Source: Acidobacteriota bacterium (lineage in GTDB: Bacteria > Acidobacteriota > UBA6911). Taken from it: a stretch of 64,000 nucleotides of DNA. Position numbers and translations under genes: made by a program. This document shows, piece by piece, positions 22,891-37,283 of this stretch (the first letter of the stretch is position 1; each line of letters begins with the position of its first letter). Below the pieces are notes generated by a model. It worked only from the letters and a program-made list of their open reading frames with translations, had not been told where the DNA came from and ran no database searches. The stretch spans positions 342,264-406,263 of the forward strand of contig CBDFLD010000016.1 in the NCBI GenBank assembly GCA_965249005.1. The letters run 5' to 3'.

Positions 22891-23430
22891 ATGTTCTCCG
22901 GAGATTGGCGCCCCGGCAGTTTTGCTAGAGTCCCCACCAATCTCGTGGATACAGAAGTCCTCATCCGGGGCATGGGACCTCCCAAAATGGACCCTCGAAT
23001 GGTAGACGGACTGCTTCGCTTCATAGAGCTGGAGAATCAGGACAAGAAACTCTTGTGCTGCTCGTATGCCATGGTCGCCGCGGTTCGCTTGGCGTTGTGG
23101 TTGCTACCGTTTCGCACGACCCGGGCACTTCTGGACCGCATCCCCCGAAAACGGGAAGACCGGGCAGTCGCGCCCGAAAGACTGAGCTGGGCTGTCCGGA
23201 CATCAAGCCGTCGAGTATTGGGGGCGTCTTGCCTGACCCAGGCTCTTGCACTTCTCGTACTTTTGTCGCGCCAAGGACAGGTAGCACAGCTACGCTTTGG
23301 CGTCTGCCAGGACAGGACTCAAGGTTTTCGGGCTCACGCTTGGCTGATACTCAAGGGGAAGATCTTGATCGGGGAGGAACTCCTGGATCAATACACACCC
23401 ATCCGCATGCTGGGGAGTGAAGTCCGATGA
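22891..23430 (+). CDS. lasso peptide biosynthesis B2 protein (transglutaminase-like Cys protease, leader peptidase)
   Basis: 179 aa. The Cys...His...Asp arrangement CCSYAMVAAVRLAL...GVCQDRTQGFRAHAWLILKGKIL matches the McjB C-terminal/Transglut_core3 consensus (C..SLAL...L...G....L.IGV......F.AHAWVE..G). Confidence 0.85.
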   Translation: MFSGDWRPGSFARVPTNLVDTEVLIRGMGPPKMDPRMVDGLLRFIELENQDKKLLCCSYAMVAAVRLALWLLPFRTTRALLDRIPRKREDRAVAPERLSWAVRTSSRRVLGASCLTQALALLVLLSRQGQVAQLRFGVCQDRTQGFRAHAWLILKGKILIGEELLDQYTPIRMLGSEVR

Positions 23431-25289
23431 GCGGGATCGCCGGTGTCTTGTCCATGGACGAACCGTCGGTCGACCCCGGCATCGTTGCGGTCATGCTGGA
23501 GAGACTCGCGCGCAGGGGGCCTGACGGCCAAGGGCTCTGGACACAAGGCTCACTGTCGCTCGGGCACCGCATGCTAAAGGTAACTCCGGAATCGATGAAC
23601 GAGCATCTTCCATTGGTCAAAGACGAGATCGTTCTTACCTGCGACGCACGAATCGACAACCGCATCGAGTTGATCCGCGGGCTAAGGCTCCGCTCGGCGC
23701 CTGCCGACAGCGAGCTGATTCTGAGAGCCTATCAGGAGTGGGGAGTTCGTTGCCCAGAGAAGCTCCGGGGAGACTTTGCGTTTGCACTCTGGGACATAAA
23801 GAAGAGATGTTTCTTCGCCGCGCGAGATCGGATTGGGATAAAGCCCCTGTACTACGTATTGAATTCGAAGACCTTCGGCGTGGCCTCCGAAATATCCCCT
23901 TTGTTCGAAATCCCGAACGTTGCAAAAAGGCCCGACGTGGATTCTCTGAACGAATTCCTGGACCTCACGGTTGTGCCGGCGGACCGGACGCTCTATGACG
24001 GATTACGCCGGCTTCCGCCCGGACATACTCTGGTCCTGCAAGGCGGTCGAATGAGGCTGGATCGCTACTGGGCGCCAAATCCTCAGCTGGAGATGCGCCA
24101 GCCCAGCCTGTCGCAACATGCGGAGGAGTTTCGCGATCTCTTCTCAGAGGCAGTTGCGGCACAGATGCGAACATCGTCTGGGGTGGGGTGTCTGCTGAGC
24201 GGAGGTCTCGATTCATCCTCTGTTCTTTGCGTGGCAGCGGATGCGGCACCGGCTTCCGAGGCGCCGGCCGCATTCTCGATGATCTTCGATTCACTCGGCT
24301 GCGACGAGCGGGAGTTCATCCAAGAGGTGACGCGAAAGACCGACGTTCCGAGCTATGCGGCCGCCGTGGACGGGGCCGAGTCGTCGACGCTGCTCCAGAA
24401 ATACTCCTCGATGTGTCCGGACTGGCCTGTTCGCGGATTCTGCCCTACCGCTATCTGGCCGTTGATGGAACTTGCGCGCAAGGGTGGAACACGCGTCATG
24501 CTCACGGGACACGGCGGGGATCATGTCGCGGAAGGCAACCTGTCATCCCTGACGGATCTCATGAGGACAGGTCACGTGTCGGAGCTCTTGAGACAATTGC
24601 AGCCCTTTCGCTACGCACCCTCAGTGTGGATGGAATTCGTCATCAAACCGCTTCTGCCAAGGAGCTTCAAGAACCTGGCTCGGTGGCTGCTTCGCGCCGA
24701 AACAACCACCCTGCGCCAAAGCACCCTGCGTGAAAGCACCCTGCGCCAAAGCACCCTGCGCCAAAGCACCCTGCGCAAAAGATCGAATAGAGCGTTAGAG
24801 GGAGAGCGATCCGATCCATGGACACGGAACGGGAGCCACTTTGCGCACCAAGAGGCCCTGGCCCTGTTGTCGCCGAGTACGAGCCTGTGGCTCGATGGTT
24901 ATTGGGATGTTCTGGGCAGCCTATTTGGGATGGAGTTCCGGCACCCCTTTTTCGACTCTCGACTCATCGAGTACCTCCTGACGATTCCTCCGCAAGAGAA
25001 ACTCTGGGGAGGACAGACCAAGGTCCTCTTGCGAGAAGGAATGGATGGAATTCTCCCCGAACAAGTGCGTAACCGAACCGGAAAAGCGGAATTTTCACCT
25101 CTCGTAGAACACCAGCTCAAGCGCCTACCGTCACCTGCCATACGATCTCTTCGCCTGGCGCAGGACGGCTTTGTCAACCGAGAAAGACTTGCAACACTCA
25201 ACGGCGGATCGAAGCCTGGCCAGAGCAACAGCATCTCGCTATGGCCGGTTCTGTGTTTGGACGCCTGGTATGAAGCCAACTTCAATTGA
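23427..25289 (+). CDS. lasso peptide cyclase C (asparagine synthetase B homolog, macrolactam synthetase)
   Basis: 620 aa. It has an AsnB-like N-terminal domain but starts MSGIAG, with Ser where the glutaminase nucleophile Cys2 would be. The PP-loop is LLSGGLDSSSV. Its ATGA start overlaps the B2 stop. It contains the coding repeat (STLRQ)x5. Confidence 0.85.
   Translation: MSGIAGVLSMDEPSVDPGIVAVMLERLARRGPDGQGLWTQGSLSLGHRMLKVTPESMNEHLPLVKDEIVLTCDARIDNRIELIRGLRLRSAPADSELILRAYQEWGVRCPEKLRGDFAFALWDIKKRCFFAARDRIGIKPLYYVLNSKTFGVASEISPLFEIPNVAKRPDVDSLNEFLDLTVVPADRTLYDGLRRLPPGHTLVLQGGRMRLDRYWAPNPQLEMRQPSLSQHAEEFRDLFSEAVAAQMRTSSGVGCLLSGGLDSSSVLCVAADAAPASEAPAAFSMIFDSLGCDEREFIQEVTRKTDVPSYAAAVDGAESSTLLQKYSSMCPDWPVRGFCPTAIWPLMELARKGGTRVMLTGHGGDHVAEGNLSSLTDLMRTGHVSELLRQLQPFRYAPSVWMEFVIKPLLPRSFKNLARWLLRAETTTLRQSTLRESTLRQSTLRQSTLRKRSNRALEGERSDPWTRNGSHFAHQEALALLSPSTSLWLDGYWDVLGSLFGMEFRHPFFDSRLIEYLLTIPPQEKLWGGQTKVLLREGMDGILPEQVRNRTGKAEFSPLVEHQLKRLPSPAIRSLRLAQDGFVNRERLATLNGGSKPGQSNSISLWPVLCLDAWYEANFN
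24707..24781 (+). repeat. 15-bp tandem repeat x5 (caccctgcgccaaag) inside the cyclase gene, encoding TLRQSTLRESTLRQSTLRQSTLRK
   Basis: There are five consecutive 15-mers with 0-2 mismatches each. The repeat is in frame. Confidence 0.85.
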
Positions 25290-25308: not shown

Positions 25309-25488
25309 ATGGAAAAGCAAAACCCTAAGGATATTACGGTAGAGGAACAAGAAAAGACCAGTCCGTCTCAGCAGAAGGAATACACGACTCCACAGCTGAC
25401 AGAATACGGAAAAGTCGCCCAGGTCACCGGTGGACGTCCGGGCACGACGCGTGACTTCGGCGGGACTTCTCCAGCCTTCCCCGGATAG
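25309..25488 (+). CDS. lasso peptide precursor (A): a 41-aa leader plus the 18-aa core GRPGTTRDFGGTSPAFPG
   Basis: 59 aa: MEKQNPKDITVEEQEKTSPSQQKEYTTPQLTEYGKVAQVTG|GRPGTTRDFGGTSPAFPG. The RBS aaggag lies 10 nt upstream. The leader matches the YxxPxLx3Gx5TxG consensus exactly (Y25, P28, L30, G34, T40 at position -2). The core begins with Gly1 and has Asp8 as the ring acceptor, followed by bulky Phe9 and Phe16 as candidate plug residues. Confidence 0.85.
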   Translation: MEKQNPKDITVEEQEKTSPSQQKEYTTPQLTEYGKVAQVTGGRPGTTRDFGGTSPAFPG

Positions 25489-25507
25489 CGCCGGAGTTTG
25501 CCGACAC

Positions 25508-26410
25508 GTGATCGCAAAGCTAATCCGGAAAAAACGCCAGGCGTACTGGGCCTCGCTTGAGAGTGATCTGCCCCTAGGAACCCTTCCCGTTGGAGCCTCT
25601 GATCTGAGCACAACGGTCCGGATCCGAAGAACGGAGCACTCCAGACCGGCCCAAGGCACATTGGACCGCATGGAATGCTTCGTACAAGGGAGGCACCTCC
25701 TCGCCACGGGAAAGAGCGATCGCTGTCTCACAATCGATGGCGTCGGAGAGTTCTTTCTCGGCCAGGGTATGCAAGAGATCCAGTACCGTCACTTCCCGGG
25801 CGGCACCTCCAAGTTGATCGGCTACTGGCTTCTCCACTCCGTTCTACCCTTCCACCTTTTCTCCCAACGTAGTTTGGAGTTTCTTCATGCCAGCGCGGTT
25901 GCGATCGGAAGATTGTCGGCGGCATTCTTGGCGCCCTCTCATGGTGGGAAGTCCACACTTGCGGAGTACTTCGTGCGGAGGGGCCACCCACTAATCACTG
26001 ATGACAAGCTGGGAATACTGCAGTCCAACGGACAGTACCTGGCTGTGCCGGGAGTTCCCTTTCTTCGTCCCTATCGGAGATCCGAGGACCTGGGGTATCG
26101 CATCGAGAACTTTGCACGGGAGCCTCTTCCGCTTGGAACCTTGTACGTACTCCAAGCCAAGGATCCCGAAGCTCCGATCAAGATCAGGGAACATTCCCCT
26201 GCCGAGGCATCATGGGCCTTGACACAAAACTGGGAGTTTCGAATCGCGTCTAGAATCAAGGAGCGTTTCGAATACTTCGCCGACCTGGTGGCATGCACAA
26301 GGGTATGCAGCATCGAAATCCCGCGAGACCCAGCCCGGTTGCCCCAAGTCTACACCGCCGTTTGCCAAGACCTGGACGGATTGAAACAGCCTTCTGCTCA
26401 AGCCATCTGA
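25508..26410 (+). CDS. HPr kinase/phosphorylase C-terminal-domain homolog (lasso-peptide Ser/Thr kinase, PadeK-like)
   Basis: HASAVAIGRLSAAFLAPSHGGKSTLAEYFVRRGHPLITDDKLGIL matches the HprK P-loop block (H.gv.v.G.gvLI.G.SG.GKSetAleLv.RGHrLvaDD). A GTG start at 25508 follows a GGAG; the alternative ATG start is at 25670. Confidence 0.75.
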   Translation: MIAKLIRKKRQAYWASLESDLPLGTLPVGASDLSTTVRIRRTEHSRPAQGTLDRMECFVQGRHLLATGKSDRCLTIDGVGEFFLGQGMQEIQYRHFPGGTSKLIGYWLLHSVLPFHLFSQRSLEFLHASAVAIGRLSAAFLAPSHGGKSTLAEYFVRRGHPLITDDKLGILQSNGQYLAVPGVPFLRPYRRSEDLGYRIENFAREPLPLGTLYVLQAKDPEAPIKIREHSPAEASWALTQNWEFRIASRIKERFEYFADLVACTRVCSIEIPRDPARLPQVYTAVCQDLDGLKQPSAQAI

Positions 26411-26465
26411 GCTCATTTCGTCCAAGAAGGGAATCCTTTACCGTCCACTCTGAACAGGAGCTGCA

Positions 26466-26765
26466 ATGTCACCGAATCTCGAATCCAGAGTTGAAATCGC
26501 ACCGGAGATTGTCTACCAAAAAGTCGGCGAGGAAACCGTATTCCTGAACCTTCACACCGGCTTCTACTACGGTCTCGACTCAGTAGGAAGTCGCTTCTGG
26601 GAATTGCTGTCGGATCAGAGGGCTCCGATGCTGAGCGAGGTTCTCGAGGCAATCACCCGAGAATATGATGCTCCCACCGACAGGATCCAGATGGACATTC
26701 TGGAACTGGTGGAAAACCTTCATGCCAAAGGGCTGGTCACGCTGCCGACAGAGGCCGACTCGTAA
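26466..26765 (+). CDS. lasso peptide biosynthesis B1 protein (PqqD-family RRE, leader-binding)
   Basis: 99 aa. EIVYQKVGEETVFLNLHTGFYYGLDSVGSRFWELLSDQ...EVLEAITREYDAPTDRIQMDILELVENLHAKGLV is a canonical PqqD fold signature. The RBS is aggag. Confidence 0.85.
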   Translation: MSPNLESRVEIAPEIVYQKVGEETVFLNLHTGFYYGLDSVGSRFWELLSDQRAPMLSEVLEAITREYDAPTDRIQMDILELVENLHAKGLVTLPTEADS

Positions 26766-26769
26766 ACAA

Positions 26770-27456
26770 ATGAATATTCTCAATCGCGAAACGGTCCTGA
26801 AGCGCTGCTCAGAGCTGCGTATCCGCCTCGATCCAGGCAACCGCCTTCAAATATCGAACGACCGTCATCGGATCGAATGTCGGGGACAGGGACTTTCGAT
26901 CCTCGAGGTCTTCGCTCACCCGACGAGCGTCGGCGAGGCGATCCAGAAGCTGGGCACGAACCTCCCGGGTAGCCAGGCATTCGTAGACCTTGTCAACATG
27001 ATCATGGAGCTCCACCAGGCCGGAATCCTGGAATCGATCGATGGACGAACTTCGCCCCCGGATCCCGAGCCCGCCGGATTTGGCGCACCGCAGATCCACG
27101 TCCAGATGCTCAACGACCGGGAGCGAACTGCCAAGTACATCCAAGCCATCCGCGAGGTTGTCCGAGAAGGCGATGTCGTGGTCGAGATCGGCACCGGCAC
27201 GGGAGTGCTATCGGTGGCAGCAGCCCAAGCGGGCGCACGGCATGTCTATACAATTGAGGAAACCGGGATCGCAGATGGTGCGGAAGCCGTATTTGCGGCA
27301 AACAATCTGCAGAATCAGATTACGCTGGTACGCGGAAGATCCACCCAGGTACAGATACCCGAACGAGCGGATGTCCTGGTCAGTGAGGTAATCGGAAACG
27401 AGCCTCTGGCTGAAAAGGTCGTCCAGTATACACTGGATGCGCGCACTAGGCCTTAG
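26770..27456 (+). pseudogene. 5' part of an RRE-like/PRMT-like (protein arginine methyltransferase fold) methyltransferase gene, interrupted by an IS1380-like insertion
   Basis: The ATG lies 5 nt after the B1 stop. The N-terminal ~90 aa are PqqD/RRE-like (LRIRLDPGNRLQISNDRHRIECRGQGLSILEVFAHPTSVGEAIQKL). Motif I is VVVEIGTGTGVLSVAAAQAGARHVYTIEE, and the double-E loop is VLVSEVIGNEP. The ORF ends ...DARTRP* exactly where the IS begins. Confidence 0.7.
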
Positions 27457-29302
27457 TCCAGCGTGATTTTTTGCATGAGGAGGAAGAAAAGCCCTGGAAC
27501 GTGCGCCGTTACGGGATAAAATGCGTTTGATATATTTACAAGACATCCCGAAAGGAGCACATTCCAGGTGAATAAAAGAAACCACAGAATCCTCCTCCGA
27601 GACAAGCAAAATCTTACACGCCGGTTGGAAAGAAATCAGTTTGAGGACCGGTCCGATCCTATGTTCAAGGACTCCAACACCTACTACGAGATCGCCGAGA
27701 GAACGCGCGCCATCGGATCTGGTGGTATCGGAGCCATTCACAAGCTCGTGTGTAAGCTTGGATTGGACAAAGATATCAACAGAAACATCGTTTTGCTCAA
27801 GTACCACTTTCCTTACTGGGAATCCGATCATGTACTGAACATCGCATACAACGTCTTGTCGGGTGGAACCTGTCTCGAAGATATCGAGCGGTTGCGCCAG
27901 GATGAGACCTACATGAACGGACTGGGAGCCGAGAGGATTCCGGATCCCACGACGGCTGGAGATTTCCTCCGTCGTTTCGATGAGGATTGGATCTTCGGAC
28001 TTCAGGAAACCATCAATGAAACCCGAACCAAGGTGTGGAAGTTGCAGGATGCTTCCTTCCGGAAGGAGGCCATCATCGACGTGGACGGGACCGTCGCCGG
28101 AACCTTGGGGGAATGCAAGGAAGGAATGGACATTGCCTACAACGGGATCTGGGGTTACGCACCGTTGATCGTGACCTTGGCCAATACGAATGAGGTCCTC
28201 TATCTGATGAATCGGCCGGGCAACCGTCCCTCTTCCGACGGAGCGGCCGAGTGGATGGACCGGGCAATCGATCTGGTGTCGTCGGTGTTTACGAAGGTCT
28301 GGCTTCGGGGCGACACGGATTTCTCGCTGACGAGAAACTTCGATCGCTGGGACGAGCGGGTTGGTTTTGTCTTTGGTTATGACGCCAAGCCGAACCTGGT
28401 CGGGATGGCCGATGCCCTGCCGGAGAGACAATGGAAACCGCTCGAGCGGCCTCCTCGTTATGAGGTCAAGAGCGAAGAACGGCGCCGTCCGGAAAACGTC
28501 AAAGAACAAGTAATCAAGGAGAGAGAATTCAAGAACATCCGCCTGCAGAGCGAGCAGGTCGCCGAGTTTGACTATCGTCCCGGACACTGTAAGAAAACCT
28601 ATCGCATGGTTGTGGTTCGGAAGAACCTCACGATCGAAAAGGGGGAGCACCGGCTGTTTGATGAGGTCCGGTACTTCTTCTACATCACCAACGATCGGGA
28701 GATGACGATGGGAGAAGTGGTCCTTTTTGCCAACGATCGCTGCAACCAGGAAAACGTCATCGGTCAGCTCAAGAGTGGAGTGAACGCCTTGAGGATGCCT
28801 TCGGACAGTCTGGTATCGAACTGGGCCTACATGGTCATCGCATCGCTGGCGTGGAATCTGAAGGCCTGGTATGGCCTGGTGACGCAGGCGCCGACAGTAC
28901 GTCGTGATATCTTGAGGATGGAGTTCAAACGCTTCCTGGTGAACTTTGTGCAAATACCCTGTCAGATTGTAAGAACCGGTCGTCGCCTCGTTTACAGGAT
29001 ATTGGCCTATAGCAAGCATCTCGAAACCTTTTTGGCGACGTTCGACTATATCAGGCAACTCAGGTTTACTTGAAGGCGCCTCGCCGGCGGGTGAGCCCGT
29101 ACCCCCGGCGGAGCAAGAGTGGCGGGCGAAAGGAAGGGCATAACAGAGACAAACAAGATCAAGTGATCCAGACAACCAATGGAAGGTTTGTCTCTTGTGT
29201 TTCTCTTTGCTTTCCCTGTTACGCACAAGGAGCTGAAATCCACGAGATATTCGGAAAAGGCAAACGATTTTCCGAGCGAGCTCATACCTCGCTTATTTTG
29301 GG
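27451..29302 (+). mobile_element. IS1380-like (IS4-superfamily DDE) insertion sequence, about 1.85 kb, inserted into the methyltransferase gene
   Basis: It is flanked by the 6-bp direct repeat ACTAGG (27445-27450 and 29303-29308). Deleting 27451-29308 joins the two methyltransferase fragments in frame. The imperfect terminal inverted repeats start CC (ccttagtccagcg / RC cccaaaataagcg). It contains a single 501-aa transposase ORF. Confidence 0.7.
27568..29073 (+). CDS. IS1380-family DDE transposase (full length)
   Basis: 501 aa. The blocks are DVDGTVAGTLGECKEGMDIAYNGIWGYAPLIV (D...E..YNG.....PL) and the C-terminal NDRCNQENVIGQLKSGVNALRMPSDSLVSNWAYMVIASLAWNL, as in IS1380-type transposases. 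Confidence 0.8.
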   Translation: MNKRNHRILLRDKQNLTRRLERNQFEDRSDPMFKDSNTYYEIAERTRAIGSGGIGAIHKLVCKLGLDKDINRNIVLLKYHFPYWESDHVLNIAYNVLSGGTCLEDIERLRQDETYMNGLGAERIPDPTTAGDFLRRFDEDWIFGLQETINETRTKVWKLQDASFRKEAIIDVDGTVAGTLGECKEGMDIAYNGIWGYAPLIVTLANTNEVLYLMNRPGNRPSSDGAAEWMDRAIDLVSSVFTKVWLRGDTDFSLTRNFDRWDERVGFVFGYDAKPNLVGMADALPERQWKPLERPPRYEVKSEERRRPENVKEQVIKEREFKNIRLQSEQVAEFDYRPGHCKKTYRMVVVRKNLTIEKGEHRLFDEVRYFFYITNDREMTMGEVVLFANDRCNQENVIGQLKSGVNALRMPSDSLVSNWAYMVIASLAWNLKAWYGLVTQAPTVRRDILRMEFKRFLVNFVQIPCQIVRTGRRLVYRILAYSKHLETFLATFDYIRQLRFT

Positions 29303-29836
29303 ACTAGGTTCCTCAGAGACAATGCAAGGTTTGTGCCCAATCGGCTGGACGTTTATGGTTTGCCCGTCGTCGTGACCGAGGAGCAGCTGGCGAGGCACCT
29401 GTTCACGGAGACAACAGCAAAGCAGTGGCAGGATTGGTACGGAATAAGATTCCAGCCACTCACAGAACTCTCCCGAAATTCGCCTCATCCATGTTTCATT
29501 CGGCCACGGGACGCACGCCGATGGCAGAGCCTGAGTGCGCCAATCTTGTTGTCGAGCTATGACCTGGCGGAGACAGCGACTCCAGTCGTCCAGAACTCCG
29601 CCGGCAGCGTTGCCACCGCGCAGGGAGAGTGCAACGGATTGCTCGTGTTCTTCGAAGTACAGCTCGGACCTACAACCCGTCTCTCGACTCACCCGGAACA
29701 CGCCGGGGAAGCCAGTTCGTGGTATTCGCCCCTCTGGACTTTACCCGAGCCCATCTCACTTCACAGAGGAGATCGATTCGAAGTCCTCTACAAACATGAC
29801 GGCGACATGGGCCGTGTATGGGTTCGACGTTCCTAG
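29303..29836 (+). pseudogene. 3' part of the interrupted PRMT-like methyltransferase (C-terminal beta-barrel with THW-like loop)
   Basis: Read in frame from the right-hand ACTAGG: TRFLRDNARFVPNRLDVYGLPVV...SWYSPLWTLPEPISLHRGDRFEV. This parallels PRMT ...[21 protein letters not shown]...[22 protein letters not shown]. Confidence 0.7.
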
Positions 29837-29856
29837 ACACATTGTGCGGGCACTAG

Positions 29857-31059
29857 GTGAGAAACGCGATCTTGCAACCTGAACAAGACGTCCTGCTCTG
29901 CTGCGCACGCAGTGCGCTCGATACGGGGAGCCGATTACGGCTCGCGAGTCTGCTCCGAAATGTAGTGGATTGGGATTATCTATTTCGCACCTCGCAGCGT
30001 CACGGTCTACTTCTATTGCTCCACAAGCATTTGATCGCCTGCGGAAGCACTGCGATTCCACCATCAGTCCTGCAGCGGATCAAAGACCACTTCCACCGAA
30101 ATGCGGCGCGCAACCTTCACATGACAGCCGAGCTATGTCGCGTCTTGGACTACCTGGAAGGCCACGGCGTCAGTGCCCTTCCATGGAAGGGTCCGGCACT
30201 GTCCGCATCCCTGTACGAAGACCTGACCGCACGGCAATATGACGACCTGGACGTACTGATTCGGGTCGAGGAGGTACCACGCGCTTTGCAACTGCTCCAA
30301 CGAATCGGATATCAGCCCCAATTCAGCCTCGGCGGCGCAGAAGAAGAAGCCTATCTCAGATCCAAATGCGAGTACGCGCTGGTGGAGCCACAAAAAGCCG
30401 TGGTTCTGGAAATACACTGGAGGATCGTTCCCAGGTACTTTTCCATCGATCTGGACATCGCTCCCCTCTGGGAACGGACGGACGCAATCACCCTGGGGAA
30501 CTCCAGAGTCCAGACACTCAAGAATGAAGATCTGATGATTCTTCTTGCAATTCACGGCGCATCGCACCTCTGGGATCGAGTTGGCTGGATCTGCGATCTC
30601 TCCGAGCTCCTTGCCCCGGCACACTCGTTGGACTGGGACTGGATTCTAAGGGAAACGAAGCGTCTCGGCTGCCGGCGGATCTTGATGTTGGGACTGAATC
30701 TGGCCAGTCAACTGCTAGGACAACAAATTCCGGACCAAATCGAAGGACATGTTCAGGAGCGATCGGCGACCCGGCTTGCCGAGACCGCCCGGCGTCGTCT
30801 TTTTCGAGACCACTGGGAGCAGCCCGGAATCGTCGAAGTCAACTATTTCCTGGTTCGGTCTCGCGAGCGATGGATGGATCGGGTCTTGTTCTGTATCCGC
30901 CTTGCGACGACAACCTCACCCGAAGACTGGGCCTTCTTGCGGCTCCCGAGGCTCTTGTTCCCCCTCTATGTTTTCGTTCGCCCCTTTCGATTGTGCATCA
31001 AATACTTTTCTTCCTACTGGCGGCAATCCGGATGGGGAACGGACGGTTCGAATGCGTGA
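29857..31059 (+). CDS. NTP_transf_5-type nucleotidyltransferase, an accessory enzyme associated with the lasso cluster
   Basis: 400 aa. VLLCCARSALDTGSRLRLASLLRNVVDWDYLFRTSQRHGLLLLLHKHL...LPWKGPALSASLYEDLTARQYDDLDVLI matches the 'uncharacterised nucleotidyltransferase' family that recurs in lasso BGCs. The stop overlaps the ABC exporter start. Confidence 0.7.
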   Translation: MRNAILQPEQDVLLCCARSALDTGSRLRLASLLRNVVDWDYLFRTSQRHGLLLLLHKHLIACGSTAIPPSVLQRIKDHFHRNAARNLHMTAELCRVLDYLEGHGVSALPWKGPALSASLYEDLTARQYDDLDVLIRVEEVPRALQLLQRIGYQPQFSLGGAEEEAYLRSKCEYALVEPQKAVVLEIHWRIVPRYFSIDLDIAPLWERTDAITLGNSRVQTLKNEDLMILLAIHGASHLWDRVGWICDLSELLAPAHSLDWDWILRETKRLGCRRILMLGLNLASQLLGQQIPDQIEGHVQERSATRLAETARRRLFRDHWEQPGIVEVNYFLVRSRERWMDRVLFCIRLATTTSPEDWAFLRLPRLLFPLYVFVRPFRLCIKYFSSYWRQSGWGTDGSNA

Positions 31060-33013
31060 TCCTCTCTTCGAGAAATATCTTACAGCAGTCGTCGAGATCC
31101 TATCATGGAAGGTGGTGCTCGCCGTCGTATTGATGGGCCTCGTGAGTCTGAGCGAAGGTATAGGCCTCATGCTGCTGATTCCCTTACTGCAGCAGACCGG
31201 ACTCGACGTCTACCAGGGATCCCTGGGGACGGTTGCGCGTTTCTTATCGAGGGCTTTCGAATTCGTGCATCTCGAAGCTCGCTTGCCAACCGTGCTGGGC
31301 TTCTACTTGACGGTCGCGGTCTTGATCGGCTGTCTATCTCGATGGGAATCCATACTCAAGTTTCAACTGGTTTACCGTTTTGTCTCTGCCTTGCGCCTCC
31401 GCCTCTATGACGCCGTTGGCCGAACCAGCTGGGAGTTCTTTGCGCGATTGCGGTCGTCCTCCATCGCGCACGTACTGACCACCGAAGTGGAACGAGTCGG
31501 AGCCGCCACTTTTCATTTGATGCAACTCGTCTCGCTGGCAGCCATTTCCCTGACGTACATCGGTTTTGCCTTTGCGCTATCCTGGGGCATGACCGCAGTG
31601 GTTTTTGTTGCCGGGATTCTCCTGCTATTGGCCCAGAGACGACAGCTTGTCGTCGCACGAGCCGCCGGCAGGGACACGTCCGAGGAAACCAGGGGGCTTT
31701 TCGCCGCGATTTCGGAGCATTTGAGCGGCATGAAGACCGCGAGGTGTCATGGTCTTGATCTCCAGCTGGCTGAGTCCTTTTCAGCGCAGACCTCGAAGGT
31801 GAAGGTAGCATCCCTCCGTTCGGTCTTCAATCAAGCAGATACCAAGTTCCGGTTGGATCTTGGACACACCTTGATTCTGGGTGCAATCCTTTACGCCTCC
31901 ATCGAACTGGTCCAAATTGCAGCCGCGGAAGTCCTTCTGCTGCTATACCTTTACGCACGCCTTATGCCCAGACTGTCCGGAGTTCTTCAAAGCTACCAAG
32001 GCTTTATGAATCTGTTGCCAGCATACGCCGCCGTTTCAGAGCTGGAGGAAGAATGTGTCGCAGCCCCCGTGGTTCGAACGAGTCACGCCCAAGATATCGA
32101 GCTCAGAGAGGGAATTCACTTAAAGGGAGTATCGTTCCAGCATGATCGCCCCGTGCTCGAAGATCTGACCCTGTCCGTCGAGGCAGGCCGAGTGACTGCC
32201 ATCGTGGGACCCTCGGGAGCGGGTAAGAGTACCATTGCCGAGCTCGTAATCGGATTGATCCAACCGCATCGCGGTTCCGTATGGGTCGACAATACCCCTC
32301 TTGCCCCCGAACACTTGTCGAGTTGGCGAAGGCAGATCGGCTATGTTTCCCAGGACGGCTTCCTGTTTCACGATACCGTCCGCGCAAACCTGCTGTGGGC
32401 CAATCCACAGGCTACAGCCGAACAAATCAAGCGTGCGCTGTGCATGGCCTCGGCAGGATTCGTGGAACGACTACCGGAGCGGTTGGACACCATCGTCGGC
32501 GACCGCGGAATCCTACTCTCTGCCGGGGAAAAACAGCGCCTCGCGATAGCGCGTGCCTTGATCCGTGAGCCCTCACTCCTGATCTTGGACGAGGCAACCA
32601 GCCAGCTGGACTCCGAAAACGAAGAGAACGTCCTGAACGCCATGGACCAGCTCCGAGGTTACACAACGATATTGACCATCGGACACCGTCCCAGCACAGT
32701 GCACAGAGCCGACACGATCCATATCCTGGATGCCGGCACCATCATAGAGTCCGGCCCATGGAATGAGCTGACAAAACGGGTTGGTGGCCGCTTCCCGATC
32801 CTCTCCTTGGCCCACGGAGTGGAGGCGGATCTAGACGGCCAAGCGCCACCCGCGCGCAGCGCTTCGGAGATCGAAGGCCACGGTTCAGGACACGGGCCGC
32901 TGACCGGCACTTCCGTTTCGCGACGCCTCGACCCAGTCGCGAATTCCAATGAGGGCCACCGGGATAACGACGGGAAAGGCCAGAAACAGGGTTCGGCCGG
33001 GATTGCCCCATAG
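31052..33013 (+). CDS. ABC exporter (fused TMD-NBD, McjD-like lasso peptide export/immunity protein D)
   Basis: It has six transmembrane helices. Walker A is GPSGAGKST, the signature motif is LSAGEKQRLAIARAL, Walker B is LLILDEAT and the H-loop is TIGHR. The last ~60 aa (a Gly/His-rich tail) may be read-through, because a convergent membrane-protein gene overlaps it. Confidence 0.8.
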   Translation: MRDPLFEKYLTAVVEILSWKVVLAVVLMGLVSLSEGIGLMLLIPLLQQTGLDVYQGSLGTVARFLSRAFEFVHLEARLPTVLGFYLTVAVLIGCLSRWESILKFQLVYRFVSALRLRLYDAVGRTSWEFFARLRSSSIAHVLTTEVERVGAATFHLMQLVSLAAISLTYIGFAFALSWGMTAVVFVAGILLLLAQRRQLVVARAAGRDTSEETRGLFAAISEHLSGMKTARCHGLDLQLAESFSAQTSKVKVASLRSVFNQADTKFRLDLGHTLILGAILYASIELVQIAAAEVLLLLYLYARLMPRLSGVLQSYQGFMNLLPAYAAVSELEEECVAAPVVRTSHAQDIELREGIHLKGVSFQHDRPVLEDLTLSVEAGRVTAIVGPSGAGKSTIAELVIGLIQPHRGSVWVDNTPLAPEHLSSWRRQIGYVSQDGFLFHDTVRANLLWANPQATAEQIKRALCMASAGFVERLPERLDTIVGDRGILLSAGEKQRLAIARALIREPSLLILDEATSQLDSENEENVLNAMDQLRGYTTILTIGHRPSTVHRADTIHILDAGTIIESGPWNELTKRVGGRFPILSLAHGVEADLDGQAPPARSASEIEGHGSGHGPLTGTSVSRRLDPVANSNEGHRDNDGKGQKQGSAGIAP

Positions 33014-33907
33014 GAAGATGACAGACAAGGCCAGAATCACGAGGAGCCAGAGCCAGTTCTTCAAGATCGTCGGCTTTTCGCTGAAAACGATGGCATACAG
33101 AGCAGGAAACCAGAAAAAACCAAATGAGGAGAACCAATCCAGAGCACCGTTGGGTGTCAACATCGATCGGATCTGAGAGAACGCCTGCCCTACCAACGAC
33201 AAATTGAAGAACGTGTCTTCCGAAAAGGGATCGATGACAAAACGGTAGAACAGATAGAGGATCGTTGCGGGAAGGAGCCACACCGAATAGAGCCATTTTC
33301 GCCGAAAGGAAAGCTCGGAGAGCCACAGCAGAGGCCAAAGGAACAGAGCCGTCTCCTTCATCACGAGTCCGACGGCAAAGCAGCCGACCAGGAGCCATGG
33401 GCGGTCCTTCAGGATAGCCAAGGCGCCGAGAAGCAAAAAAAGGAAAGCCGACGGATCCACCATGGGCGCACCCCCCTGCTGGAGTACGACACGACTCGTC
33501 AGGAATATGGTCACGCCGAGCAGAGAAAGCCAGGGAGCCTCAAAGAAGTGAGAAAGGTAGATAAAGAAAACGACGCCCGCCGACGTTAAAAATAATAGGT
33601 TGACGAGGGCAAAATGAATATGAGCACGAACAAACCGTGTGGGTTCTCGCCGCAGAAGACGCTCGATGGAGTCCGGCACCAGCTGAGCCAGCCAAATCGT
33701 GCCCATTCTATATCGTCTCTGGTTCTCAACAGACTCGCCGTAGTAAAGGCTCACATAATCCCTGGCGTCGGAAAGCCCCCCCAGGTTGTCGACGCTGAGG
33801 GTGTTTATGCTCACAAGGACGGTCGAAAGGCTGATATTGAAAGCGAAAACGGCGGCGACAGTGAGCAGGGTCCCTTTCGAGCTCAGCGATCTACGGGATA
33901 TCTTCAT
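32885..33907 (-). CDS. hypothetical polytopic integral membrane protein
   Basis: About 340 aa from MKISRRSLSS, with at least 8 hydrophobic helices and no recognisable catalytic motif. It is convergent with the ABC exporter. Confidence 0.4.
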   Translation of the reverse strand: MKISRRSLSSKGTLLTVAAVFAFNISLSTVLVSINTLSVDNLGGLSDARDYVSLYYGESVENQRRYRMGTIWLAQLVPDSIERLLRREPTRFVRAHIHFALVNLLFLTSAGVVFFIYLSHFFEAPWLSLLGVTIFLTSRVVLQQGGAPMVDPSAFLFLLLGALAILKDRPWLLVGCFAVGLVMKETALFLWPLLWLSELSFRRKWLYSVWLLPATILYLFYRFVIDPFSEDTFFNLSLVGQAFSQIRSMLTPNGALDWFSSFGFFWFPALYAIVFSEKPTILKNWLWLLVILALSVIFLWGNPGRTLFLAFPVVIPVALIGIRDWVEASRNGSAGQRPVS

Positions 33908-33958
33908 AGCGGCATCCTCGCGCTTGGAATGAGGATCGATCCGCAGGGATCGAAGCCA

Positions 33959-35782
33959 ATGACAATATACAAGATCCGGGGTCATCGAGAGAAACTGCTT
34001 TTCCCCATAGCCCGAACACCCCGCGCGAAACTTGCTCGCCGAATAGCAAGATGGATCACGGCGACGTCGGCCGCTGCAACCTTAATGGCTCCGGTTTTAC
34101 CCTCGGCACCCGCAACCCAAGACATCCAAGAAACGCGCCACCGGATTTCGGCCGTGCAGGACGATCAAGTATGGATTGAAGGTGGGTTGCTCGACGGATT
34201 GCGAGAAGGAATGGAGGGCTCCGTATTCTACGAAATACTTGTCTTGGGAAAGAAGAAAAGGATTGTGCCTGCGCAGGTTCAACTCATCCGCGTCGAGGAT
34301 GGACAATCGATCGGTCGCTTGATCGAAACAACGGGAATAGCCAACGTCGGATACCATACCGCCTTCCGCCCTGAGCCGGTTCATGAACTCTTGCCGCTCT
34401 TTCTCGCTCGGGCCACGCGAGCCCTCGAGGCGCGAGAGTACAGGCTGGCCCGTCGCTTCTACTCCCGGATTCTAGAAGCACTTCCAAACGATCCCTACGC
34501 CACCCAAATGATGCAACAAACCCGCGTGCATCTGGAAGAAGAGGCAGCACTGGCCCGGGAGCGAAGAAACGCCCAGTATTACAAACAGGTGGCGCGATCG
34601 TTTTTGGCCTCCAGCAACAGCGACTCCGTCGTGCTGGCCTTGCAGTATCTCGACAAGGTGATTGCGGTGTTACCTGAGGATGCCGAGGCCATACGAATGT
34701 CCCAAGAAGCGCAGGCACTCTTGCGGGATCTTGGCGGCAACACAGCCGAGTCCTCCCCGGGAAATCCACAGATCGAGATCACCGCGGGTCACGAGACCCC
34801 AGATGCCTCGACGATGGGAGCAGCACTCCCCGGTCATCCTCCCGACAAACAGAGTGTGCCGCGCGGAGAACAGACGTTGGGAGCATCCATCCTGGGCGTG
34901 CATACGCTAGCTGATGACAAGACGACCTCCGTCATGCAGAGACAGGCACACACCGGGACCGCGCAGCCGGCCGGCAGGCAAGCAGCGGAAACCCCTTCGG
35001 AAACAGAATTCGACCAAGGGTTGACGACGGAAGTGTCAGCTGCGGCCAAAGAGGGAAGTCGCGAGACGTCCCCGGAAGGGATGGTCTTCATCGACGCTGG
35101 AGACACTCCGATAGGCACGGATCTGAAATCGACTCCGTTCTACAATGAAACCCCACGACAGACGATGTGGCTCGATGCCTTCTACATCGATCGCAACGAG
35201 GTCACAAACGAAGAATACAAGAAGTTTTGCGATGATACGCGTCGAACGCAGCCATCTTACTTTGTCACCGGTAGCTATCCAGCGGGTGCCGCTAAGCTTC
35301 CGGTAGTGATGGTTAGCTGGGTCGATGCAGTCGCGTACGCGCACTGGGTGGGGAAAAGGCTCCCCTCGGAGTTCGAATGGGAAAAGGCCGCAAGCGGCAC
35401 CGAAGGCAGGCGCTGGCCCTGGGGAAGCACCTGGAATCCAACCCGACCGAATACCAGAGAGACCGGTGACCGGGTCCGGGAGGTCGGATCCCGTCCGGGC
35501 GACACGAGCCTGTACGGCTTGACGGATATGGCCGGAAATGTCTCAGAATGGACGGCGGATTCGTACCTACCCTACCCCGGCAATTCGCATCACGAGGAAG
35601 AATATGGCGAAAAATTCAGAGTCTTGCGAGGGGGGTCCGTCAATGTGAGCAAGGAATTTGCTCGTTGTCAATTCCGGGCCCGCCTGCCCGAAGGTTTTCG
35701 CTCCCGCGATCTGGGTTTCCGCTGTGCGCTTTCTGCCACGACCGGAACCACCGAAGCGAAAGACCTGGCTAAGTATCCCTGA
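33959..35782 (+). CDS. FGE-sulfatase/SUMF1-domain protein (formylglycine-generating enzyme superfamily) with an N-terminal TPR-like region
   Basis: The C-terminal ~260 aa read WLDAFYIDRNEVTNEEYKKF...WVGKRLPSEFEWEKAA...GNVSEWTAD...RVLRGGS, which are FGE-domain hallmarks. The likely start is MTIYKIRG at 33959; the ORF is open from 33614. Confidence 0.65.
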   Translation: MTIYKIRGHREKLLFPIARTPRAKLARRIARWITATSAAATLMAPVLPSAPATQDIQETRHRISAVQDDQVWIEGGLLDGLREGMEGSVFYEILVLGKKKRIVPAQVQLIRVEDGQSIGRLIETTGIANVGYHTAFRPEPVHELLPLFLARATRALEAREYRLARRFYSRILEALPNDPYATQMMQQTRVHLEEEAALARERRNAQYYKQVARSFLASSNSDSVVLALQYLDKVIAVLPEDAEAIRMSQEAQALLRDLGGNTAESSPGNPQIEITAGHETPDASTMGAALPGHPPDKQSVPRGEQTLGASILGVHTLADDKTTSVMQRQAHTGTAQPAGRQAAETPSETEFDQGLTTEVSAAAKEGSRETSPEGMVFIDAGDTPIGTDLKSTPFYNETPRQTMWLDAFYIDRNEVTNEEYKKFCDDTRRTQPSYFVTGSYPAGAAKLPVVMVSWVDAVAYAHWVGKRLPSEFEWEKAASGTEGRRWPWGSTWNPTRPNTRETGDRVREVGSRPGDTSLYGLTDMAGNVSEWTADSYLPYPGNSHHEEEYGEKFRVLRGGSVNVSKEFARCQFRARLPEGFRSRDLGFRCALSATTGTTEAKDLAKYP

Positions 35783-35835: not shown

Positions 35836-37283
35836 ATGGCCGAGTCAATCCCATTTTCAGTTGAAATTGGATAGCGGCTCCCGTGGTATTCACGCAATTC
35901 GTTCCTCCACGGCTTTTGAAAAGCGGGCTTTTAAGGAACGACGTAACCTCGGTAGGTGGCGATAGCCACGGACCTTCCTGAGTCTCGGCTCGATCTCGAG
36001 CAATGCCGTAGCTACCCAACGATGTAATTGGTTGCTGTTTTTCCAGTAATCCACTTTGTCGGTTCTTTGTCCAAGCTGCGCATTGATGGACTCAAGACAA
36101 TTCGTAGTAGAGAAACTTTCCCGGAGTTCCTCAGCCAGGCCCAACCGGTGAAGGGTGAGAGTCTCTTCGAAACCCTCATCCAAGCTGGCTGCCGCTGACT
36201 GGTTCAGCAGCAATAGTTCTTTTCGGACCCTTAGAAGCGCTTTTTCTGCCTCTTTCAGGTTTGGCTTTTGATAGGCATCCTGCAATCGTTTGCGAAAGGT
36301 TCCCTGTTTGCTCTTGGGTAAGTAGCACAATACATTTTCACGCTTGTGCCATCGGCAGCGCTGCACGACCGCCCGGTTGCCGAATACCGCCTGGACGGCT
36401 TTTCGCAATCCTTTGGACCCATCGATAACGCACATCAGGCCCTTGTCATGGCAAAGCCCTCTTTGTATTAGCCCTCGGAGAAAGGCTATACACACTCGTT
36501 CATTTTCGGTACTGGCCTGCAGGAACCCCAAGATGATCTTCTCACCCTCGAGGGTCACTCCCAATCCAATCAGGATTTGCTCCGATGCAAAGCTTTTGCC
36601 GTCCAGAAAGAGAGCAACAAAATCGTATCCTGCAAGAGATCGTTCCTGCAGCTCCTTCAGTTTTCGAGCTGTCACTTGGATGGTACGGCGCGAGATGCTT
36701 GATGCTGACATGCCAAAAGCCTCCGGAACGGCCTCAGCGCACTCCCGATAATTCCGACAGGATAATCCGTTGATCACCTTCTTCAAAAGGCCCTCGTCCA
36801 TATTCCTGGGTTGCTGCAACTGCCTATAGGTTCTCAACGGCGCTTCACGACCTTGGTTTGTGTCCCGGACTCGAGGAACACGGACTGGAATCTTCTGATC
36901 TGTGAGATACACTGAACCCCTTTGCGATCCCCATCGATGAAGGTTGCAATCACCGCCGGCTCGGCTATAACGCTTCCCGGCGAGCTCGTTGACTTCATCT
37001 TCAAGGCTGTCCTGGACGGCTCTCAATCCGAGCGGTATCAATGCTTGGATCAGCTCGATACGTGCATCAAGTTCATTGACCTGATCGTTGATTTCCGGAA
37101 CCCGAGCCCCGCCTGAGGATCGTTTTTGCTTCGATGTGATGCTGTTTGGTAGAATCTTCTTCATAGTGGCTCCTTGAGAATTGGTTGACTTCGTTTTCGC
37201 TAAAAACAAAAATCTACCACTCTTGGAGCCGCTTTCCTTTCATTGAATTTCAACTAACAATAGCACTCACTCGTTATGGCCAT
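35836..37283 (-). mobile_element. IS256-family insertion sequence, about 1.45 kb
   Basis: The imperfect terminal inverted repeats are left atggcc...gttgaaattggatagcggctcc (35836-35881) and right ggagccgc...aatttcaac...ggccat (37225-37283; its reverse complement begins gttgaaatt). It contains a mutator-type transposase. I could not find a clean target-site duplication. Confidence 0.65.
35890..37209 (-). CDS. IS256-family (mutator-type) transposase
   Basis: YDFVALFLDGKSF...ILIGLGVTLEGEKIILGF...ERVCIAFLRGLIQRGL...LMCVIDGSKGLRKAVQAVFGNRAVVQRCRWHKRENVL matches the Transposase_mut DDE consensus. Confidence 0.9.
   Translation of the reverse strand: MFLAKTKSTNSQGATMKKILPNSITSKQKRSSGGARVPEINDQVNELDARIELIQALIPLGLRAVQDSLEDEVNELAGKRYSRAGGDCNLHRWGSQRGSVYLTDQKIPVRVPRVRDTNQGREAPLRTYRQLQQPRNMDEGLLKKVINGLSCRNYRECAEAVPEAFGMSASSISRRTIQVTARKLKELQERSLAGYDFVALFLDGKSFASEQILIGLGVTLEGEKIILGFLQASTENERVCIAFLRGLIQRGLCHDKGLMCVIDGSKGLRKAVQAVFGNRAVVQRCRWHKRENVLCYLPKSKQGTFRKRLQDAYQKPNLKEAEKALLRVRKELLLLNQSAAASLDEGFEETLTLHRLGLAEELRESFSTTNCLESINAQLGQRTDKVDYWKNSNQLHRWVATALLEIEPRLRKVRGYRHLPRLRRSLKARFSKAVEERIA

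Follow-up and report, generated by a model that had tools for sequence, protein, structure and literature searches.

What did the two gene fragments on either side of an insertion sequence (IS) in a lasso peptide operon of an Acidobacteriota bacterium encode before they were parted, and what would the intact product do? The fragments lie on contig CBDFLD010000016.1, within a stretch of 64,000 nt that was analysed as a whole; this stretch is referred to as the window, and all coordinates are positions in it. We consider it likely that both fragments belong to one gene of the lasso operon, encoding a fusion of a RiPP recognition element (RRE; RiPP, peptide made on the ribosome and modified after translation) with a protein arginine methyltransferase (PRMT), that this gene was recently split by a 1,852-bp element of the IS1380 family, and that the intact enzyme methylates a core arginine of the leader-bearing lasso precursor.

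The interrupted gene and the PRMT core of its intact product

The interrupted gene and the inserted element comprise the following features.

26770..27045, + strand: methyltransferase gene, codons 1-92, predicted N-terminal RRE/PqqD-like domain (four beta-strands, three helices, one strand)
27067..27450, + strand: methyltransferase gene, codons ~100-227, PRMT Rossmann half (PDB profile search, Pfam PrmA); the fragment's open reading frame (ORF) continues to a stop at 27454-27456 within the IS
27445..27450, no strand: left ACTAGG copy of the target-site duplication (codons T226-R227; from the sequence)
27451..29302, + strand: IS1380-family insertion sequence, 1,852 bp, G+C 52.7% (ends from aligning 59 related elements)
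27568..29073, + strand: IS1380-family DDE transposase, 501 aa, oriented as the operon (NF033539, 297.5 bits, cut-off 180; PF13701, 1.3e-27)
29303..29308, no strand: right ACTAGG copy (from the sequence)
29309..29836, + strand: methyltransferase gene, codons 228-402 and stop, PRMT beta-barrel half (profile and fold matches)

The upstream ORF starts with an ATG at 26770, four bases past the end of the preceding gene for the lasso protein B1 (26765), and ends ...LDARTRP at a TAG (27454-27456). The insert opens with six bases, CCT TAG, that form the last two codons of this ORF; the stop thus lies just inside the IS boundary at which a preliminary description of this locus had placed it. The hexamer ACTAGG, of which the plus strand carries only 5 copies across the window, flanks the 1,852-bp insert at 27445-27450 and 29303-29308, as had been reported. 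Removal of 27451-29308 fuses 26770-27450 with 29309-29836 into a single ORF of 1,209 nt that reads ...LDARTR|FLRDNARFVPNRLDVYGLPVV... across the junction. The frame is restored as the preliminary description had predicted when the IS and one repeat copy are deleted, but the product has 402 amino acids, not 390. The G+C content of the interrupted gene is 58.0%.

The reconstructed protein was compared with about 5.8 billion public proteins. The best match, P0001 (418 aa as annotated), was uninterrupted and 98% identical at 100% query coverage; its 90%-identity cluster has four members. In P0122, annotated with 418 aa on an ENA contig of 353,789 bp, the final 402 residues are exactly the reconstruction, at 100% identity. 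Between P0122 and P0001, which is likewise continuous on an ENA contig of 2,180,460 bp, 11 of 418 positions differ, 10 of which fall inside the 402 reconstructed residues. The window's two fragments were also recovered exactly, as P0121 (167 aa) and P0123 (244 aa), both annotated on one NCBI/ENA contig of 427,328 bp. In an alignment of 28 sequences the junction was free of indels in the 27 aligned family members, and D223, A224 and R227 beside it were invariant. The uninterrupted allele that the preliminary description had proposed to seek in relatives is therefore present in public data, identical in P0122 and nearly so in P0001. This comparison was made at the protein level, and on such sequence grounds the predicted junction is that of an existing allele and not a chance in-frame join. 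Since both fragments are 100% identical to the intact allele, the insertion appears to be recent and polymorphic among the available assemblies.

The reconstruction had been described as a PRMT-type methyltransferase, and profile searches as well as fold comparison bear this out. In Pfam, it matched PrmA at 40.1 bits (cut-off 22), while PRMT5_C (28.2 bits, cut-off 30.3) and PRMT_C (18.2 bits) both remained under cut-off. A profile of 28 family members compared with all PDB sequences matched 91 chains at E<=0.01, and all 60 of the matches listed were PRMTs. The leading ones were AtPRMT10 (1.9e-45), PRMT8, PRMT7, PRMT1, PRMT6 and CARM1, with E values from 5e-34 downward over profile positions of about 100-398, so that the alignment extends through the beta-barrel that follows the Rossmann domain. 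The AlphaFold2 model of the intact protein (mean predicted local distance difference test score, pLDDT, 87.7; predicted template modelling score, pTM, 0.71) gave the same picture: in a Foldseek search of the PDB the top 50 matches were all PRMTs, at E values of about 1e-23, target TM scores of 0.67-0.81, 308-352 aligned columns and 20-24% identity. Sequence profile and fold together show that residues ~100-402 form a complete PRMT core, consisting of a Rossmann half that binds S-adenosylmethionine (SAM) and a beta-barrel half. The insertion point aligns with the segment ...ARDKW|LKPGG... between these two halves.

The catalytic motifs were located by profile alignment and scored in 118 full-length homologues. 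Motif I, VVEIGTGTG, was found as described before, at 27178-27204 (residues 137-145); the family's VVDIGTGTG pairs with VLDVGSGTG of PRMTs, and G141, G143 and G145 are invariant, as are E163, D116 and R119. The helix IHxxMLNDRxRT pairs with IHEEMLKDEVRT. The double-E loop comprises S205-E215 (SEVIGNEPLAE, 27382-27414), and the family's SEIIGNEPLGE aligns with SEWMGYxLxxE of PRMTs. The preliminary description had recognised this loop as SEVIGNEP, but the second glutamate is E215 and not E211, which makes E206 and E215 the double-E pair. Each of the two is Glu in 112 of the 118 homologues and Asp in the other 6. The SWYSP sequence, which had been proposed as a THW-like loop in a C-terminal barrel, lies around 29717-29731, and the residues equivalent to the THW loop are S363-S364-W365 (29714-29722). 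Barrel and tryptophan stood up to this comparison, but Ser takes the place of the THW histidine. Across the family the position reads [N/C/S]-[H/S]-W, with Trp in 104/118 and, at position 364, His in 56/118 and Ser in 39/118.

The enzyme thus shares with the eukaryotic PRMTs (PRMT1, PRMT6, PRMT8, AtPRMT10, CARM1 and PRMT7) the Rossmann domain and barrel, the HxxMLxDxxR helix, the GxGxG of motif I, the glutamate that follows motif I, a double-E pair of the same 9-residue spacing and the Trp at the THW position. It differs from them in being bacterial, encoded in a RiPP cluster and provided with a predicted N-terminal RRE domain.

The N-terminal domain and its proposed recognition of the leader

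The N-terminal part had been called a PqqD/RRE-like segment. Modelled separately, residues 1-95 (pLDDT 86.6) fold into four strands and three helices and show the three-stranded sheet followed by three helices that characterises the winged-helix RRE. The best Foldseek matches were PqqD, ThcOx, TigE, the RRE of PbtF, LynD/TruD, MibB and TbiB1 with its leader, followed by MccB, MadB, McbB, TglI, CteB and NisB. A linker of about 10 residues, modelled with low confidence (pLDDT <50 for residues 93-100), leads to the PRMT core. The RRE fold was thus recovered, but a PqqD sequence match was not: the PqqD models of Pfam (PF05402) and NCBIfam gave no match to residues 1-100 at E<=0.1.

When an alignment of the N-domain was compared with 18 lasso B1 proteins by HHalign, the two were collinear over 90 columns (P=1.6e-4, probability 50%), with 4% for the C-domain used as a control. 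Two B1 proteins were among the top five non-family matches of a hidden Markov model (HMM) of the N-domain in a set of 7,640 ORFs. An iterated family HMM that matched a lasso B1 at 2e-10 was discounted because that B1 had joined the model one round earlier. As Pfam gave no PqqD match and the HHalign result is suggestive, the assignment rests on the fold: according to the model, the N-domain is an RRE-fold domain, and its homology to PqqD is probable.

Several points speak against a leader-binding RRE. In addition to the missing Pfam match, the N-domain HMM reached B1 proteins only at E values of 0.5-1.4, a marginal similarity, and the cluster already encodes a free-standing B1, so that a second RRE is not strictly needed. 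The enzyme could therefore be an arginine methyltransferase whose N-domain is not an RRE and serves dimerisation or the docking of a partner, and it could act on the mature threaded lasso, as do the PIMT-type enzymes TceM and LihM, which according to reviews take only threaded substrate. The same reviews have most other lasso tailoring enzymes working on the linear precursor. We regard this alternative as unlikely, if the strongest of those considered, and favour an RRE-PRMT fusion that acts on the leader-bearing precursor.

RRE domains fused to RiPP enzymes are known from the dehydratases NisB, MibB and MadB and from LynD/TruD, MccB, ThcOx, TigE and PbtF; here, in contrast, the catalytic partner is a PRMT. 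The N-domain of the window also differs from these fusions and from the lasso B1 proteins TbiB1 and TfuB1 in lying below detection by Pfam PqqD.

Enzyme family and predicted substrate

Among the candidates scored, 940 proteins matched at E<=0.001. The top 120 have about 404 aa and are 41-50% identical over 85-100% of the query (>=95% in nearly all); some homologues are annotated as "50S ribosomal protein L11 methyltransferase". In a scan that took a single genome for each GTDB species, 173 loci were confirmed; the best 80 of them span Cyanobacteria (Rivularia, Plectonema), Acidobacteriota, Chloroflexota, Gemmatimonadota, Myxococcota, Actinomycetota, Bacteroidota, Verrucomicrobiota and Firmicutes. 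Searched with iterated HMMs and the lasso proteins of the window, 30 of the 52 loci that have a full-length homologue encode C, B1, B2, an HPr-kinase-like protein or an NTP_transf_5 protein within 10 kb. The HPr-kinase-like gene frequently lies directly upstream of the methyltransferase gene, and in many loci it adjoins or overlaps it. Neighbour clustering of 21 of the 22 lasso-free loci revealed no shared alternative neighbour.

A search for the leader motif yielded precursors beside 15 full-length homologues, which together with that of the window (core GRPGTTRDFGGTSPAFPG) gave 16 cores. All 16 contain arginine (35 Arg in about 285 residues), and few contain lysine. The Heliobacteriaceae core SRSGVGRDGGVGSDCTLS (SRSGVGRD...) has Arg2, Arg7 and Asp8 exactly as in the window core. 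In comparison, arginine was present in only one of four cores encoded beside PRMT-like genes without the N-domain (Fisher's exact test by our own calculation, one-sided p ~0.004, from a small sample of loci that are not independent). With arginine in every core and a conserved double-E pair, a core arginine is the most likely target. We propose that the linear precursor would be bound through its leader by the RRE domain, that the guanidinium group of a core arginine would be held between E206 and E215, and that the methyl groups would come from SAM. Candidate residues in the window core are Arg2 and/or Arg7. Methylation would precede removal of the leader and closure of the Gly1-Asp8 ring by B1, B2 and C.

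It must be weighed against this proposal that the THW histidine is Ser in the window protein and His in about half of the family, and that in our reading of the profile alignment the YFxxY motif of PRMTs appears as GFxxA. In 22 of the 52 full-length loci, some of them on short contigs, no lasso gene was found within 10 kb. The positions of arginine in the cores are not conserved, the comparison comprises only 4 peptides, and the loci are phylogenetically non-independent. For the family as a whole we infer both the substrate residue and the timing of methylation. The histidine, the lasso-free loci and the varying arginine positions would also fit a PRMT fold with another methyl acceptor than the side chain of a core arginine, e.g., lysine, histidine, a carboxylate or a different peptide or protein, as would the best Pfam match, PrmA. 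PrmA is a lysine/alpha-amine methyltransferase and is not known to have a PRMT-type beta-barrel. However, the solved structures matched were, among those listed, all PRMTs, with E values down to 2e-45 and the beta-barrel included; the double-E glutamates, which form the arginine clamp of PRMTs, are kept as E or D in 118 of 118 homologues; and the cognate cores have arginine throughout and little lysine. Another acceptor hence seems still less probable to us than an N-domain of a different kind, and we retain a core arginine as the predicted target.

Side-chain arginine methylation is a hallmark protein modification of eukaryotes. Within lasso peptides, reviews from 2021, 2022, 2024 and June 2026, the first two on lasso modifications and the last on interlocked peptides, list methylation only by C-terminal O-methyltransferases (LasF/StspM) and by PIMT-type enzymes acting on Asp (TceM/LihM), in agreement with the preliminary description. 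A 2024 review of RiPP methyltransferases mentions arginine only for the alpha-N-dimethylation of plantazolicin, and the word stem "guanidin" is absent from it. The literature searched, the coverage of which is incomplete, yielded no account of a lasso or RiPP enzyme of the PRMT type, and neither this literature nor the reviews on lasso peptides and RiPP methyltransferases yielded arginine methylation of a lasso peptide. The preliminary description had called the methyltransferase unusual for a lasso cluster; this holds with respect to the literature, but the enzyme is not rare and belongs to a large family. Like LasF/StspM (carboxyl O-methylation at the C-terminus) and TceM/LihM (Asp O-methylation), the enzyme is a SAM-dependent tailoring enzyme encoded in a lasso cluster. 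In contrast to these, it is of another methyltransferase class, is predicted to carry out N-methylation of arginine instead of O-methylation of a carboxylate, and has an RRE fusion that is absent from the review descriptions of those enzymes. StspM acts on the linear precursor, according to the reviews.

Among bacterial natural-product enzymes, SznE acts on free L-arginine. It is the arginine N-methyltransferase of the streptozotocin cluster (PMC12637814); like it, the window enzyme would be a bacterial natural-product arginine methyltransferase. As far as we found, lasso clusters have in the RRE-PRMT family a variant form of tailoring that has yet to be characterised. We give roughly even chances to the wider proposal that this family represents the first RiPP-dedicated PRMT, a widespread RRE-PRMT fusion, often paired with an HPr-kinase-like enzyme, by which lasso precursors still bearing their leader would receive omega-N-methylarginine. 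The IS-bearing and IS-free alleles seen here would then provide a natural pair of knock-out and wild type. If true, this would add a new tailoring reaction, offer a leader-guided arginine methyltransferase for peptide engineering and provide further evidence on the distribution of PRMTs in bacteria.

Two further groups of PRMT-like genes were encountered in the related loci. A second PRMT-like paralogue, 26-29% identical (tblastn), occurs at L004:6321-7469, L008:8790-9929, L009:14260-16119, L033:15573-16775, L037:5677-6636 (- strand) and L042:11050-12213. The five that were aligned (all but that of L009) have no aligned N-domain; in these, the first double-E glutamate is replaced by Asp and the second by Q, R, Y or G, which by sequence suggests a different specificity. 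Shorter RRE-less PRMT-like genes are present in lasso clusters at L075:9974-11122, L077:4389-5588 and L080:9959-11092 and also in L072 and L078. The predicted cores beside the RRE-less genes are rich in lysine and mostly without arginine, e.g., TTTCAKGYNDGTATGCKNSFKKS.

The IS1380-family element, the lasso cluster and neighbouring genes

The insert had been described as IS1380-like. Its transposase scores well above the cut-off of NF033539, the NCBIfam equivalog model of the IS1380 family, and also matches Pfam DDE_Tnp_1_4 (PF13701). A search for inverted repeats inside this single copy gave nothing convincing, and the terminal repeats are weak (8 of 16 positions match by hand count); the ends were therefore set solely by comparison with relatives. 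A metagenome scan with the transposase returned 80 loci at 57-84% amino-acid identity. Among the relatives the conserved left end is CC(T/C)TAAACCAGCG and the right end CGCTT(A/G)TTTT(G/A)GG, which fits 27451 and 29302. The left terminal repeat of the window's element (27451-27463) is thus CCTTAGTCCAGCG and the right one (29290-29302) CGCTTATTTTGGG, with the reverse complement CCCAAAATAAGCG. CC...GG ends with imperfect inverted repeats of about 13 bp are shared by the 59 relatives of about 1.85 kb.

Including that of the window, 60 elements had both ends plus flanks. In 44/60, both flanking hexamers have CTAG at positions 2-5; the outer positions agree in just 25/60, and all six are identical in 14/60. 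Among elements embedded in contigs of at least ~4 kb, a full match was found in 5/9 (our own count). Judged from these sequences, the clade targets CTAG, and ACTAGG/ACTAGG is typical of its duplications; the restored sequence is identical for a duplication of 4 bp (CTAG) and for one of 6 bp. The target of the insertion, centred on CTAG, lay between codons 227 and 228, and ACTAGG was duplicated. Target duplications of IS1380-family elements are normally 4-5 bp. The clade shares with IS1380, ISEcp1 and IS942 the equivalog transposase, ends starting with CC, short imperfect inverted repeats and a short target duplication, and differs in its size (~1.85 kb), its 501-aa transposase, the strong preference for CTAG and a duplicated stretch of 6 bp. 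As an insertion the event is ordinary; the interest lies in the enzyme family. An identical copy of the IS was not found in the window, in the 80 GTDB loci or, by megablast, in PLSDB plasmids. The clade is widespread in the environment (L081-L160, JGI metagenome contigs), and many contigs consist of the element with short flanks.

It is improbable that the split is not fixed and that the IS-bearing version is a minority variant, or a mis-join of repeats in assembly, in a mostly intact population: intact alleles do exist in two other assemblies, one 100% identical, and in this IS clade the flanks on metagenome contigs are frequently mismatched, a pattern that chimeric assembly would give, but a mis-join would not yield a perfect, clade-typical, CTAG-centred duplication with exact restoration of the frame, and the same split is found in the public annotation of the 427-kb contig.

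The N-terminal fragment, of 228 aa, retains the RRE and the half that binds SAM, while the barrel and the THW-type loop are encoded 1.86 kb away in a fragment that has no start codon of its own except an internal GTG at 29333. With barrel and THW-type loop severed, the enzyme is almost certainly inactive in this genome, as judged from the gene structure, and a peptide made here would be unmethylated. With regard to a possible polar effect on the downstream nucleotidyltransferase and exporter genes, which the preliminary description had suggested, a consensus scan of 26300-30200 for promoters and terminators gave matches at the level of shuffled sequence. The right arm of the IS contains a hairpin followed by a U-rich tail (29145-29215), which was not significant (z -1.55). 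The insertion would show inactivation of the cluster under way in this lineage; for annotation, it is a warning that the two fragments are one gene.

The operon has the order B2-C-A-kinase-B1-methyltransferase-nucleotidyltransferase-ABC exporter, and its remaining genes are as follows.

22891..23430, + strand: lasso B2 protease (NF033537, 85 bits)
23427..25289, + strand: lasso cyclase C (Asn_synthase, 2.4e-51; NF033535, 2.5e-135, under its 525-bit cut-off)
25309..25488, + strand: precursor peptide (A), leader ...YTTPQLTEYGKVAQVTG, core GRPGTTRDFGGTSPAFPG (NF033521, 19.2 bits, cut-off 19; motif search)
25610..26410, + strand: HPr-kinase-like protein, start codon uncertain (weak Hpr_kinase_C match, 4e-3)
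26466..26765, + strand: lasso B1/PqqD RRE protein (PF05402, 3.2e-15)
29857..31059, + strand: NTP_transf_5 nucleotidyltransferase, 21 bases past the methyltransferase stop (PF14907, 7.8e-58)
31049..33013, + strand: ABC exporter, start codon uncertain (ABC_tran, 1.4e-32; ABC_membrane, 6e-13)

All that is expected of a lasso biosynthetic gene cluster is present, namely B1, B2, C and a precursor whose leader has YxxPxL...T and whose core has Gly1 and Asp8; Asp8 of the core is the predicted ring-closing residue. Within the cyclase gene, the 15-bp unit CACCCTGCGCCAAAG is repeated 5.0 times (91% match, 24707-24781), giving an in-frame (S)TLRQ stretch of five units, and the match of C to the NCBIfam cyclase model is split in two stretches. 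The longest ORF for the kinase (25430-26410) overlaps the precursor gene, and the real start is thus probably further downstream. The window core ends ...AFPG; characterised lasso kinases phosphorylate a C-terminal Ser. Just downstream of the operon, 33614-35782 encodes a protein of 722 aa whose C-terminal domain is of the FGE-sulfatase type (sulfatase-modifying factor-like; 2e-50). A second mobile element, with a Mutator/IS256-type transposase (PF00872, 1.1e-41), lies at 35890-37209 on the - strand, about 3 kb past the ABC exporter gene.

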